This document shows, one piece after another, positions 6,001 to 54,000 of a DNA stretch of 64,000 nt. How positions within the stretch are numbered: position 1 is the first letter of the stretch; every line of letters begins with the position of its first letter. Made by a program: the position numbers. Origin of the DNA: a virus; the IMG/VR virus record IMGVR_UViG_3300045988_184269; one strand, given 5' to 3'.

Positions 6001-9000
6001 CTTGCGCCGGTGGTGCGCTTCAGCGGGGAGCGCCTCTTGTTGATTTAAGCGTTCTCGGAATTAACCGAATACGCTTCCGGTGTTGCTGCTGGAGAACCAG
6101 CCGCCGACCTGCTCGATAATCAGGGGTGCCAGCCAGATGACAGCGACAACGATGACGATAAGGAAAACCTTCTTCTTCATCGCTTCGATGTCTCTCGCGT
6201 CGCCAATCAGCGCCTTCAGTGCGGTGGCACTGAGGACGATGGCGGCCAGAGGCGCAACGATTGCGGTGATGATGGTGTAAATTGCCTTGGTGCCAGTCTT
6301 AACGCCATTCACAATGGCATCAGACGTACTACCTCCGGTAGCGAAACACGTAATGGTCATCATAACCATCATCAGTGCTACGAGGAGCACAGTCGTCGCA
6401 ATACGTACCCACTTCTTGTTACCTGCGTCTGCCGGCAGAGTCAGATACTTGTCCATGTACGTACACGCTCCTTTCAAAAAAAAGGGGGAGATTTCTCAGC
6501 ATCACACTTCATGGAAGTGCGTCAGAGAACTGAAAAACATTGACCACCGTTCCATATTTTTCACTCTCTAATTCAACCCTACCAAAATTGGATATTTTGT
6601 CAAGTCCTTGGACGCGACAAAATTCCTGTGATGCTAATACAGGTATTTTTGTGTAAAGCAAAAATACTTGTATCAGCCCCACAGACCGGGGAAAACAGGG
6701 GAGGGGAGCTTACGCTCCCTTCTCCTGTGCGACAACCTTCTCCGAGCTTCTCTTCCTCTCAGCGAGGAGATGGTCGTCAATTCCCTTTTCGGCATCATCC
6801 CAATAGGATTTCTTTGTTTTCCCGTTGGGGAGGATGGTAATACTGTGACGGATGCCCTTCTTGTGCAGAGCCAGAGCCATTGCCCCGATTCGCTTAAAGA
6901 CATTCCGCTCCGAGGGAAGACCAAGCTCATGCTGCTCACAGAGAGCTGCCAATTCCTGTTCCTTCTCCTTTGCGTATTCCGCATCCCAACAAAGCATCTC
7001 CATGTTGATGCCATGTTTCTTTGCCAACTGCTTGAGCGAGCTGCACGCCATGATAACGCCCGGATTGGTCATCTTATCCATATCCAACGCATTCACAATG
7101 CGAGTGATGCCCCGTTTCTTGAGTGCGGGGAATATGCTCTCATCAAGCATCTTGGTATTCGTTACTCCTTGAATTGCGATAAACGCAGCTTTTCTATCAC
7201 CCAGAAGTGCCAGCGCGACGTCGGCCTTGAGGGGTCCTTCCGTCAGGTAGACGGTCGTACCCCTGTTCAGCGGAGCATTTCCGAGAGGAAAGTGGGCTCT
7301 GCTGATGCCGGTAGTCACACCGCAGGGCAGCCGGTTGGCGGAAACGGTAAGGTAGCGGGGATTGGTGTTCCCGTCACGCCGTACCTGAATTCCGACGATT
7401 TGGCCGCCGCTGTTTCTGGTGGGGATGAGCATACCTTCCGGCAGGTTCAGAATCCATGTTCCCTTCACCTTGTAGAACCCCGGCACACCCTGAAGGGTGC
7501 AGCCGCGTTTCAGAAGGGCGGAAGCAAGAACCATACCGGAGATAACAGAAGCAGAATTTTTCTGCTTCATACGGCTGTAGGAGAAAATAGCGCCTTTAAG
7601 CTCATTGAACCGCTTATTGGCGTTCTTTGCCTTCACAGCAATTCGCTCCGACGTCTTCACAGTGAAGCTGGCATATCCGTTTCTCTGGATTTCAGCATCA
7701 CTTAACCCTCGCTTTACCAGATTGTCACGGTGCTCTTTGGTAAGACTCAACCATGACAGCGACAGAAGCGTACTGTATGTTTTGTCCAACACACTGCTGG
7801 GAGCAATGGGAATCTCCTCAAACTGAAACTGCTTTGTCTCAATTTCAGTGGGAATAGTGCCGTTGCCACAGCGGGCGGTCATCTCTTTGATGAGCTCGTG
7901 TGTCTTTTCATCATCCAGAGAGTCCACAGAAACGCCTTTTACTGCTCTCGCATAGAGACTCAGCGGAGTACCCTTTGCGCCACAGTGAAAGCACTTATAT
8001 CCGCCTTTCTCAATGTTGCAGCCGAGCCGATACTTCGTGTCACCACAGAAGGGACAACAGAAGTTCCGCCAGTTTCCGCCACTTTTCTTCTCTTCACGGA
8101 AACCAAGCGCTCGTGCAACATCGAGGGACGTAATGCGGACGTCGTTAGAAAAGCCCATATTTTTTTCTCCTTTCTTGCAAATTTTCATGTATCCGTGGGG
8201 AGGAGGAAAAGTGTGCAATCATTGCACACTTTTCGCTCCGTGCCCCAAAAGAGGTTTAGGGAATCATCTGCAGCATCCGCGCCTTCTCTTCCAAGACCAG
8301 CTTGGCCGCAACAATCAAGTTGGGGTTGTTGATGGCCTTGCACTTCTCGGCGTACCACTTGACCATGTCGATATCCAGTTCACCCATCACCTTACCCTTC
8401 ATCTTTCCGGAAGGAATGACGAAGGCCTTTGCCTGCTCCAGCGTCATACCGGCGACGCCGATAGGCTGCTGTACCGGAGCCTGTCGCTGAACGGGAGCCG
8501 TCATAGGAGACTGAGGTGCGGGCTGCTGAGGATAGGTCATAGGAGGCTGCTGCTGCTGCGGCGCCGGCTGAGGCATCTGCATCTGCTGCTGTCCAAAGGG
8601 GAAGGACGAAGCAGGCGGAGCCTGAGTTGGTGCCGGATTGGGCGCAGGTGCAGGATTACCGGCATACGGCATCGGATTGACAGGCGGCATCACAGGATTC
8701 TGGACGACCTGCCCATTACTCACGACCATCTGCGGGTACTGGAAGGGAATACCACCGTCACAGGGGTAGTTGTTCCCGTCCTCGGCGGCATTGCCGCCGT
8801 CCATCGTGGGAGGCGTGCCGAAACCAGCATTGGCAAGGGCGCGGCCCTTGGCGCGGGTTGCGGCAGTCTGGATGGCATTGTTGATGGAGTCGTAGTCGCC
8901 GGCAGTGATAGCACAGCCAGCAGTGGAACGTCCCACCATGTTGCCGTTGATGAATACAGATGCGGTAGCCTGCATCAGAGCCAGCTCAGGGATGTACTTC

Positions 9001-51000: not shown

Positions 51001-54000
51001 AGAAATTCGGTGATGAAATCCAGTCAAAGGCGCAGGTTGACATGAATGCGTTGGGTATCGAGATTATCTCCTGCAACATCCAGCGTGTGACTGACGAGAA
51101 GGGCCTCATCAATGCTCTGGGTCAGGATAATATGAGTCAAATCCAGAAAAATGCTTCTATCGCCAAGGCTGAAGCGGAGCGCGATATCCAGATTGCTCAG
51201 GCGGAAGCAGCGCGTCAGGCGAACGAGGCTCAGGTCGCATCCGATACGCAGATTTCTATTCGGCAGACCGAGCTGGCTGTGAAGCAGGCCGAGCTGAAGG
51301 AGACCTCCGACATCAAGAAGGCTGCCGCCGATGCTGCCTATAGAATTGAGGAACAGAAGCAGCGCCGGAGCCTTGATATTGCTTCTACCGATGCCGATAT
51401 TGCGAAGCGTGAAAAGGAAGCAGAACTGGCCGAGCGTGAAATCACGCTGCAGGAGCGTCGGCTTGATGCCGATATCCGCAAGAAGGCGGATGCTGATAAG
51501 TATGCTGCCGAAAAGAAGGCCGAAGCAGAGCTGTACGCCCGTAAACAGGAAGCCGAGGCCAAGCGCTTTGAGCAGGAGCAGATTGCCGAAGGTATCAAGG
51601 CCGTTGGTGCCGCAGAAGCCGAGACTATCAAGGCCAAGGCTCTGGCCGAAGCGGAGGGTATCGACCGTAAGGCTGAGGCCATGAAGAAGTATGGTGAGGC
51701 CGCAGTGGTCGAGATGATTATGAACGCACTGCCCGAAATCGCCAAGAACGTGGCTGCACCTCTCTCCAACGTGGACTCCATCACCATGTACGGCGAGGGT
51801 AACAGCACAAAGCTGATTGAGGACATCGTTTCTTCTACCACTCAGGTTTCCAACGGTATGCTGAACGGTCTGGGTATCGACCTGCGGAGCCTGCTGGCCG
51901 GCTTTGTCGGTGGTAAGGTCGCAGTTCCCGCATCTACTTCCAGTGTTGAGTCTACCGCTACCTCTTCGGGCGACGCTGAGTAAACACAATATCCCGCCGT
52001 AGGCACTCCCTGCGGCGGGTCATACGGAGAGATGGCTGAGTGGTCGAAAGCACCGGTCTTGAAATCCGGCGATGTGAAAGCATCCGTGGGTTCGAATCCC
52101 ACTCTCTCCGCCACAAAAACGAGTACGGACGGTATAACCGGAATTTACGCCTGTGGAGATGGATGTCCGTCGGTGAAACAGGAAGACTTTGTTGGCTGGT
52201 TAATCATGTGAGAGGTAGTGCCAGCACTTCAGGGAACTGAATATGCCTGTGTCGGGTGTATGAGGCTCTGAAATAACAGGATTGTATACCAAACTGCGTG
52301 CATATTGGCCGGTGTATAAGACACCAAAATAACATGGTTATCCCTCGTAAGAAAGGGATTTCGGAAAATGTGTGCAATGATTGCACACATAAAGAAGTAC
52401 GGATGGTACAACCGGAATTAACGCCTGCGGAGACGAACTCCGTCGTAGAAGCAGGAACTTGCCATACAAAGCGCACAAAAGGTTGAATATCCGAACATGA
52501 GCAAGCGTACAAAAATCGGTGGAATGGCAGGTGACTTATGAATGGCAGACTATTTCAAAGTTGTATATTCGCGGGAACTTTCCTCAGAATATGAGCCGCG
52601 CTACATTGTCATACAACCCAAGACCGGTGCGGTACTGGATGATGCCCAAGGTTTCGGCTACACGAGCCGCGAGAAGGCGGCAAAGGCGTACACCTATAAG
52701 AAGATGCCGCATCCCGAACAGCGGTCTCTGGCGGCCCGCAAACGCCGCGTAGAGAAGTGGTGTCTGGAGCACCTTGATGTGGTAGATGGTTATGCTGACA
52801 TCTGCTTGCAACATATGAAGGCATCTGGTGATGGACGTATCAGTATGAGCTCTGCTGTTGTTTCCCGTTATTTGAAGGACTGCGGATACGATAACCTGCC
52901 GTTCTCGGCGCAGGACTTTATCCGCTACTGCAAAACTTAAAATCAAAAAAGGGTAGTCAAAAAAAGAGGTGAAAGGACAATGAAGAACACCATTTTGGGG
53001 ACGGTGCGCTTCAATGACATCGAGGCGTACAAGAATGAGTGGGCAGCGAGAAGCCGTGAATGGCGCTTTGAAAAGGCCCGACAGGAAGAAACTCGCATTA
53101 TCAGAGAGAATGACAGAGACGATGCAACGCTCTTTTTGGGGCTTACGGACCTGTCCAGTCTCTCACGAGATAGTGACACCAATGAGAGATGGTGGCGGAA
53201 ACACATTGAGGACTATCTCAAGAACCTTTCTGAGTTCATCGACTACTGCAAGACCTATGAGCAGCCCGCCAACGTATATAGCAATTATAAGGGCATCGGT
53301 ATGGTCGTTGGTCTCGGCAGCCGCAGATTCTTTCTCTACCAGCCGGACTCTCTGGTGGCGGAGTATGTGCCGGTCAAGGACTATTCCGAAATGTCCGTGG
53401 GCGAGATGCGAGCCCTCGCAACGCATGGAGCTTCATCGACGCTGCCGGCATCCGTGCCTGAGGCTCTTTCTGTCTCTCAAGTACGTGAAGGTCTGTCCGA
53501 CCGTGAGGCGGAGCTGAACTCGCTCAAGGCCGATATTGAGGCAACGAGAAATGGCACCAGCGAAGAACTTCGCGCCCTCAAGGAAGAGGTCGAGCGTGCC
53601 ATGGCAGCCTTGGAGCAGAAAAAGGACAAACTGATGGCAGAGCTGTCCGCCAAACGCGAGGCTCTGGAGGAACAGGTAGAAATGATGAACAATCAGATTT
53701 ACCTGTTGGAATCTCAGATTTATGCTATCCGCTGCTACATGGGTGAGACAATCAACTTTACCCGTATCCGCACTGGACGGAACGCACCGGAAAAGGAACC
53801 GGTCGTCCTGTTTCAGAAGCTCCGTTTTCTCGATGAAGAGATGGGGCGTCTTGCTTCCATTTACAACATGAAAGAAAGCAAGCTGAAGTATTTCGAGGAG
53901 TTTCTCGCAGCGTCTCCTGTTGCGCTGGATACCTTTGCTCCCAGCGAGAAGTGTGTTGCGCTGGTTCGCCTCAGCAAGACTGGCAAGCACTTCTTTGGTC

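Follow-up and report, generated by a model that had tools for sequence, protein, structure and literature searches.

On the IncP-1 plasmid RK2, the ParB-family protein KorB, whose gene lies beside that of the ParA protein IncC, serves both partition and global control through 12 copies of its operator OB, the perfect palindrome TTTAGC-S-GCTAAA with a single central S (C or G). Repetitive extragenic palindromic (REP) sequences and bacterial interspersed mosaic elements (BIMEs) of enterobacteria and pseudomonads are lineage-specific, conserved hairpins found at gene 3′ ends, not between divergent genes, and have side-roles in termination, mRNA stabilisation and recombination. The stoperators of mycobacteriophage L5 and the SPBRE of phage SPbeta are dozens of near-identical intergenic sites bound by a master repressor. 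Chromosomal parS sites are 16-bp, even palindromes conserved across phyla; they occur repeatedly near the origin, and in Bacillus subtilis one copy lies within spo0J, the parB gene. On ICEclc, the two copies of bisS, GAGCTATCCCC-n-GGGGATAGCTC, were shown experimentally to be the loading site of the ParB-like clamp BisD, and the parallel between KorB and BisD was drawn in the same paper (PMC12409273). Here, we describe PAL-1, a palindrome that occurs seven times in a 64,000-nucleotide stretch of DNA (hereafter the window) from IMG/VR virus record IMGVR_UViG_3300045988_184269, which appears to be part of a conjugative element of gut Firmicutes. PAL-1 may be the cognate site of the ParB encoded by this element, used at many places in the manner of KorB and BisD and also occupying terminator slots, a reading to which we assign a probability of roughly 0.4.

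The complete PAL-1 unit is a perfect, odd-centred palindrome of 27–29 bp, G-AAAA-GTGTGCAA-T-S-A-TTGCACAC-TTTT-C, with a 19-bp core, GTGTGCAAT-S-ATTGCACAC. Exact matches to GTGTGCAATNATTGCACAC were found seven times in the window, with core starts at 8211, 12698, 12947, 15940, 16306, 18446 and 52370. The initial annotation had listed the same seven palindromes, with coordinates 2–4 nt earlier that included the A flank. No match occurred in 100 dinucleotide-preserving shuffles of the window; the seven copies are real and non-random. A relaxed search, allowing up to three mismatches and a free 3-nt centre, added no site in the window, showing that the copies are all-or-none. They are too similar to be independent terminators, as had been argued before, and the exact sequence is selected or propagated by something. 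Most copies had been described as flanked by A4 and T4, and these flanks are indeed complete at 8211, 12698, 15940 and 16306; the others have A4/T3 (12947), GAAA/TTTC (18446) and AAAT/ATAA (52370). An extra G...C pair is often present outside the A4/T4. The central base is C or G, and the two forms are therefore reverse complements of each other. Over all copies compared, the loop reads TGA 123 times and TCA 101 times. The central base apparently flips rapidly, as expected for a palindrome that has no preferred orientation. As RNA, PAL-1 is predicted to fold at −14 to −30 kcal/mol (z from −3.2 to −7.8) into a hairpin with a 3-nt loop and a stem of 12 bp, which has four G-C among eight pairs, plus four A-U pairs. 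At the copy 3′ of the adhesin gene, the centre (position 15949) is C in the window and G in the 97–99% identical contigs L045 and L046.

According to our own gene calls, all seven copies are intergenic, as first described, and lie in co-directional spacers. Six of the seven fall within 8.2–18.5 kb, where they partition the RepL-like genes, the adhesin gene and parAB (Table 1). The copy at 8211 is located 27 nt past the stop codon of the gene at 8256–9185, and the likely ATG of the DUF3854/CHC2 primase-like gene follows about 22 nt farther on. A plus-strand open reading frame (ORF) at 8013–10409, which would enclose this copy, was rejected, since codon usage favours the minus-strand genes at 8256–9185 and 9219–10364. 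Copies 16306 and 18446 flank parAB on either side, confirming an earlier observation, and the placement of 12947 and 16306 just upstream of the adhesin and parA start codons, respectively, was likewise borne out. Two copies had been said to follow stop codons directly: this is correct for 15940, while 18446, at 39 nt, follows the parB stop only loosely. The window ParB has G-H-R-R and N-I-Q-R motifs, and among solved structures its best match is Caulobacter ParB (6T1F; E 3e-17). Five of the PAL-1 copies are tied to D20, a conserved non-coding repeat of 180–250 nt on the same strand as the downstream genes, which begins 12–20 nt past a palindrome, or 4 nt past a tRNA, and ends at the next palindrome.

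Table 1. Positions of the PAL-1 copies and of associated features in the window.
Feature	Position	Strand	Description
PAL-1 copy	8206–8234		GAAAA-GTGTGCAAT-C-ATTGCACAC-TTTTC; between two minus-strand genes
Two RepL/HTH_36-like replication genes	11013–12492	+	Replication region inside the PAL-1 cluster
PAL-1 copy	12693–12721		Centre G; 205 nt past the stop codon of the second RepL-like gene; D20 about 16 nt on
PAL-1 copy	12944–12968		Centre C; at the 3′ end of D20; ends 44 nt before the adhesin ATG (13010)
PAL-1 copy	15935–15963		Centre C; core 5 nt past the adhesin stop codon; D20 repeat next
PAL-1 copy	16302–16328		Ends 40 nt 5′ of the parA ATG
parA	16365–17153	+	ParA/MinD-type ATPase; directly upstream of parB
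parB (candidate PAL-1 binder)	17138–18406	+	ParB N-terminal CTPase-type domain and predicted helix-turn-helix (HTH)
PAL-1 copy	18439–18471		16-bp perfect arm (AAAGAAAGTGTGCAAT-G-...) and T-run; 39 nt past the parB stop codon
Giant surface protein gene	18628–30054	+	3808 aa
Giant surface protein gene	31836–37466	+	1876 aa
tRNA-Ser (anticodon UGA)	52026–52113	+	D20 repeat starts 4 nt past the tRNA
PAL-1 copy (outlying)	52368–52390		Without A4/T4; between two D20 repeats, downstream of tRNA-Ser
D20 repeats	12733–12940, 15976–16300, 52114–52365, 52393–52540	+	Window copies

The relatives of the window ParB carry palindromes of their own. Two conjugative loci, L173 and L174, encode ParB proteins that are 39–40% identical to that of the window and 43% identical to each other. 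L173 has GAGGCTCCC-S-GGGAGCCTC in 15 copies over 16 kb (304–15855), and L174 has GGTGGAACC-S-GGTTCCACC in 11 copies over 10 kb (5331–15281). Most of these copies lie 3–17 nt past stop codons, and the flanks often extend the symmetry with differing sequence. In L173, eight copies are distributed over all five convergent spacers and none occurs in the five divergent ones. Since these likely ParB sites are distributed in the same way as PAL-1, the bias of PAL-1 towards gene 3′ ends is not evidence against binding by ParB. A scan of IMG/VR for the L173 and L174 palindromes (PAL-2 and PAL-3) returned one stretch each and was uninformative.

In both L173 and L174, parB itself contains one copy of the palindrome, at a common position in the linker immediately ahead of the HTH. 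A unique long palindrome occupies the corresponding place in further ParB homologues, and 47 of 71 ParB-clade loci contain exactly one 27-bp odd palindrome at a fixed parB offset (the loci with an intragenic palindrome come from L191–L263 (IMG/VR), L172, L175, L179 and L181). The clade consensus, AACTTC-N5-CAA-N-TTG-N5-GAAGTT, is equal to PAL-1 in length (13 + 1 + 13) and symmetry and occurs only once per locus. Its arms co-vary in their inner 5 nt, together with the encoded linker peptide, NF-xx-S-xx-EV. The simplest view of a site kept inside the gene of a DNA-binding protein, with arms that co-vary and are specific to the lineage, is that the protein itself binds there, and the clade palindrome looks like a hypervariable intragenic ParB site. 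Across lineages, the arms are the same at 71–99% ParB identity, whereas the palindromes differ at 39–45%. Relatives with a 71% identical ParB retain the PAL-1 arms 3′ of the rep genes and 3′ of parB, where the three central nucleotides have drifted.

The location of PAL-1 near the par operon and its clustering at the rep and par genes fit a system of the ParB-parS or KorB-OB type. A parS-like site for ParB, one of the candidates named in the initial annotation, is still the single best one, in view of the homologous ParB systems with odd-centred palindromes and the precedent of bisS (PMC12409273). Symmetry up to a single central base would be useless to a hairpin loop and would suit a dimeric DNA-binding protein. 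The PAL-1 copies would then be loading sites of the ParB-family CTPase, a multi-copy parS around the replication and partition region. ParB dimers would recognise two arms of 8–13 bp, close as CTP clamps, spread from each copy and, with ParA, build the partition complex. ParB at PAL-1 may also block or dampen transcription across unit boundaries. PAL-1 would be tolerated in non-promoter spacers only, at gene 3′ ends. When transcribed, it would present an A/U-flanked 12-bp hairpin in the slot of a weak bidirectional terminator.

Like RK2, the window has a ParB-family gene beside parA and a perfect palindrome, centred on a single S, in many identical copies. However, OB is 13 bp long, with many copies in promoter regions, whereas PAL-1 is 27–29 bp, has A/T flanks, lies at gene ends and avoids divergent spacers. 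Unlike OB, PAL-1 is also found in other elements that have no ParB in view. PAL-1 resembles bisS in being an odd-centred, perfect palindrome present in more than one copy on a conjugative element. BisD has an extra activator domain, works with BisC and belongs to a proteobacterial element, and no terminator-slot or mosaic-junction behaviour was reported for bisS. The ParB clade described above is similar to spo0J in having a site inside the gene, while the sites themselves differ from parS in being 19–29 bp long, odd-centred and lineage-specific.

Several observations weigh against PAL-1 being a ParB site, and the link between the two is tentative. The window parB, unlike spo0J and many genes of its own clade, has no intragenic palindrome, and the copy 5′ of parA is missing in the relatives with a 71% identical ParB. 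Other gut mobile elements also carry PAL-1, in more than 150 retrieved loci and mostly in unrelated modules. In these loci, a hidden Markov model (HMM) of the ParB clade found no ParB in about 1.2 Mb of DNA flanking PAL-1, with each locus covering at most 14 kb, so that a ParB farther off in the same element is possible. Four PAL-1-bearing IMG/VR contigs were likewise absent from the 80 best ParB-clade loci. On the basis of the HMM result, the copy number of PAL-1 does not track the window's parAB allele in the DNA covered. Furthermore, the A-run/stem/T-run build is seen in other terminators of the window (31604–31630 and 56113–56140), and orthologues of a HATPase-like gene that often precedes PAL-1 (46–49% identity) hold unrelated, G+C-rich hairpins in the PAL-1 slot. 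In one case, the gene for a 45% identical ParB is followed by an unrelated 30-bp palindrome and a T-run, where the window has copy 18446.

The distribution of PAL-1 was examined across 185,579 species, each represented by a single genome (596 Gb in total). The 19-mer was found in 36 stretches, with about nine exact matches expected by chance (our own estimate, 596e9/4^18). Most of the real matches were in contigs of metagenome-assembled genomes of gut Oscillospiraceae and Clostridia, with few copies each, conserved A4/T4 flanks and mobile-element contexts. With only 36 stretches in 596 Gb, PAL-1 is not a genome-wide REP family. A generic palindrome, unlinked to this element and found genome-wide at gene ends, had been considered earlier; PAL-1 is unlinked and does lie at gene ends, but it is not genome-wide. 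In human-gut metagenomes, PAL-1 was present in at least 115 stretches, which shared almost nothing with the window apart from its close relatives. The recurrent contexts were the 3′ end of the HATPase-like gene by a serine recombinase, Tn554-like tyrosine recombinases and a convergent spacer between flavin reductase and Fic genes, and the neighbours were otherwise typical cargo and defence genes. No DNA-binding protein common to the PAL-1 contexts was found, and the common neighbours had no homologue in the window. The exact sequence did not appear in any of the papers searched for it.

The HATPase-like protein (P0112–P0231; L182–L184), whose gene is the one most often preceding PAL-1, forms clusters of 1,000–5,000 members in gut metagenomes. 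It has no confident Pfam assignment, and its gene faces a small RepB-RCR_reg-like gene, with serine recombinases nearby. In phage-like contigs of Bacteroidales (Muribaculaceae type), two to three tandem PAL-like palindromes (GTGTGCAA-N3-TTGCACAC variants) are spaced 21–24 bp apart (L001 2315–2375, L014 7941–7980, L026 6183–6246 and L160 1294–1357). These arrays are located 50–100 bp 5′ of the prohead-protease/major-capsid operon and, although from another phylum, have nearly the same sequence as PAL-1. An HTH protein encoded near the arrays is unrelated to the HTH protein of the window (44586–45503).

To describe the modules around PAL-1, both flanks of each site were treated as arms in a junction analysis. 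The 186 sites comprised 71 flank families in 52 junction combinations. The 3′ flank of the HATPase-like gene alone had at least eight partners, with homology ending within 5 nt of PAL-1. In 20 loci, an occupied form was present, HATPase-PAL-[gene + leader, 874–1074 bp]-PAL-DUF6557, while others had the empty form HATPase-PAL-DUF6557; this cassette was the only occupied/empty polymorphism found. It consists of a gene of 169–268 aa and a structured leader (for example, L031 1842–2937 and L056 2102–3196), and the empty form keeps one palindrome (L021 6409, L029 7885 and L054 898). The DUF6557 leader (L031 2695–2915) has two hairpins with an identical loop, GTGTTCAATGTT, followed by a canonical terminator right before the palindrome, and has the look of a regulatory RNA. 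In relatives of the window, D20 is present or absent between two PAL-1 copies. As judged from these sequences, PAL-1 is a 27-bp marker that recurs at gene-module boundaries in many human-gut metagenomes. Because it is the sole sequence common to otherwise unrelated modules, it appears to act as a joint for module exchange or loss.

No single reading accounts for all of these data. The main alternative, less likely but serious, is that no dedicated protein is involved and that PAL-1 is a REP-like hairpin, terminator or module-boundary element, serving as a weak bidirectional terminator, an insulator or a 3′-end stabiliser, with its identity resulting from spread and homogenisation by recombination among the mobile elements of gut Firmicutes. 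By rough gene calls, distinct contexts were co-directional in 45 cases, convergent in 25 and effectively never divergent, the few “divergent” calls being spurious small ORFs in D20 or in the Bacteroidales phage arrays. PAL-1 copies lie 5–40 nt past stop codons, and placement at the 3′ ends of convergent or co-oriented genes is also a property of REPs and BIMEs. The stability of the predicted hairpins, the build shared with other window terminators, the unrelated hairpins in the same slot of distant HATPase-like and parB orthologues, and the many elements with no ParB in view all fit as well, as does context-specific pairing beyond the core (such as ggggaaaa/ttttcccc and aaaaataaa/tttatttttt). 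Setting aside a terminator role, as the initial annotation did, was therefore premature, considering the avoidance of divergent spacers, the hairpins in orthologous slots and the common build. On the other hand, a simple scan for a stem plus T-run was passed only by 18446 (both strands) and 16306 (minus strand); the other five of the seven copies, in which C or G comes directly after U4, failed. Between co-directional genes, the U-run past the stem measures only 4 nt, less than the A-run ahead of it, and a separate canonical terminator often adjoins PAL-1. PAL-1 is concentrated at rep/par, while other gene ends of the element use other hairpins. Moreover, PAL-1 has the same perfectly conserved arms in all 71 unrelated flank families and lacks compensatory variants, a pattern that selection on structure alone would not yield. 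(Single-mismatch variants on the sense strand were G-U-compatible in about eight cases and disruptive in six to seven; these events are not independent, which makes the comparison uninformative on wobble bias.) Symmetry that reaches a single central base, and related ParB systems with lineage-specific palindromes, one copy of which is inside parB, also speak against a hairpin with no dedicated protein. REPs, furthermore, are imperfect, number hundreds per chromosome and are linked to REP-associated tyrosine transposases (RAYTs), whereas PAL-1 is perfect, has at most nine copies per element of about 180 kb and is restricted to mobile elements. The 25 commonest Pfam families of the 78 neighbour-protein clusters (top families only) included no RAYT or Y1 (IS200-like) transposase, nor did the gene tables of L172–L184.

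The mosaic junctions could also result from site-specific recombination at PAL-1, with a tyrosine recombinase acting in trans on cassette-bounding sites of the pdif or attC kind. The sequence can be divided into an 11 + 7 + 11 geometry, with arms GAAAAGTGTGC and a near-symmetric overlap, AATSATT. Sites of about 28 bp (pdif, on Acinetobacter plasmids) or palindromic ones (attC) similarly bound modules and leave one site when empty. The 52 flank combinations with breaks within 5 nt, the clean cassette polymorphism and the variable presence of D20 suggest that recombination may occur at PAL-1. Serine and tyrosine recombinase genes are common neighbours, and a tyrosine recombinase of about 310–340 aa is encoded just upstream of parA in conjugative elements of the ParB type. 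However, no recombinase is consistently linked to the palindrome and none was seen among the ORFs scanned in the window, the lone cassette polymorphism could come from homologous recombination or replication slippage between 27-bp direct repeats, and the copy inside parB of L173 and L174 is unexplained. attC sites differ in having imperfect pairing and extrahelical bases and in forming an array next to an intI integrase; neither the window nor the loci scanned showed an integron integrase. To our knowledge, PAL-1 is unlike known Xer/dif arms, although no search with a dif model was made. Taken together, a dedicated recombination site has only a slim chance of being correct. That of an operator or roadblock for a repressor other than ParB, which would halt RNA polymerase at unit boundaries and so keep the element silent, is slimmer still. 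Such a function would fit the sequence identity of the sites and their placement in short intergenic spacers close to where genes start or end, and the tandem Bacteroidales sites upstream of the prohead protease gene have a layout like that of cooperative binding. Stoperators are, however, asymmetric 13-bp sites oriented with transcription, and the PAL-1 contexts have no common DNA-binding protein that could be the repressor; nor does any copy occupy a divergent promoter spacer. In the promoter scan, no copy overlapped a promoter-like site. Two hexamers were considered as promoter elements and rejected, TGCAAT for the −10 box and TTGCAC for the −35 box, as neither had a consistent partner hexamer at the right spacing. 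Purely speculative, and very unlikely indeed, is a role for PAL-1 as single-stranded DNA hairpins in conjugation, for example as signals at which the element's primase would prime the transferred strand. PAL-1 can fold on both strands, one copy adjoins the gene for the DUF3854/CHC2 primase-like protein, and related conjugative elements encode a Toprim/DUF3991 primase beside parB, but there is no positional logic linking the copies to a transfer origin, and PAL-1 is found in small non-conjugative modules too.

A broader scenario, which we regard as quite improbable in its entirety, would extend the ParB-site reading to the whole group. Conjugative elements of gut Firmicutes would use a hypervariable “address code” of odd-centred palindromes that co-evolves with ParB, with the ancestral copy in parB. 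In some lineages, the palindrome would have multiplied into gene-end spacers, to be ParB site, hairpin and module joint at once. PAL-1 would have escaped to small elements that lack ParB and could hitch-hike there on the partition or silencing of a co-resident megaplasmid. Multi-copy ParB sites, extragenic palindromes and module-bounding sites are each already known as a kind. What sets the present case apart is the combination, in uncultured gut Firmicutes elements, of an odd-centred 27-bp site, gene-end placement, an apparent role as mosaic joint, occurrence in elements with no ParB in view and a clade-wide intragenic counterpart whose arms co-vary.

The element itself encodes a CHAP/lysozyme protein, the DUF3854/CHC2 primase-like protein, two RepL/HTH_36 proteins, a VWA tip-pilin-like adhesin, ParA and ParB, two giant repeat surface proteins, topoisomerase III, flotillin, Fic and tRNA-Ser. 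The two giant surface protein genes share repeat units of about 92 nt and about 125 aa. Two IMG/VR contigs of 174 and 191 kb are 97–99% identical to the window DNA and carry eight to nine PAL-1 copies with the same spacing as in the window. The contigs with this element are filed as viral in IMG/VR but look like a conjugative plasmid. Megablast of 12400–18700 against PLSDB plasmids gave no match, and a 31-nt PAL-1 query gave two partial chance matches only. At gathering thresholds, Rfam identified tRNA-Ser alone, and 15900–16400 had no meaningful match at E values up to 10. In kind, the element resembles the gut conjugative megaplasmids with sortase-anchored surface modules, which are often filed in viral databases (PMC12934698); palindromes are not mentioned in that work.

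Outside the window, more than 20 D20 copies were found in L037–L050 and one in L167 (4830–5200). The 5′ domain is nearly invariant (GTACGGAYGGTATAACCGGAATTWACGCCTGTGGAGA...GAAGCAGGAA), and the 3′ part consists of one to four tandem sub-repeats of about 55–66 bp (GGTATATA..CCCTGAAATAACAGGGTTGTATACC), with 2.6 copies 5′ of parA in L167. RNAalifold predicted a fold with 42 pairs, 10 of them with compensatory changes, and Rfam had no match to it. D20 could be a new structured leader RNA, or its repeat array could be the real centromere. A TnpB (OrfB_IS605) gene adjoins PAL-1 in eight loci. In some, tnpB is followed by PAL-1 15–23 nt past the stop codon and then by a full D20 (L104 1883–3350, L037 1252–2601, L050 and L038), and a partial D20 5′ domain is also present about 45 nt 5′ of the tnpB start. 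The idea that D20 is the guide RNA of the neighbouring TnpB is unsupported, because the 5′ domain also precedes tnpB and unrelated genes, in the manner of a leader.

If PAL-1 is a ParB site, it would represent a multi-site ParB system similar to those of KorB and BisD in large, uncultured conjugative elements of human-gut Clostridia. The intragenic palindromes of the clade would then be a natural series for the diversification of ParB-site specificity, and the palindromes would offer a sequence handle by which contigs can be assigned to elements and incompatibility groups. If, instead, PAL-1 is a REP-like joint, it would pinpoint where cargo and defence genes are shuffled between gut mobile elements, and would aid in the reconstruction of mosaic elements from metagenomes.

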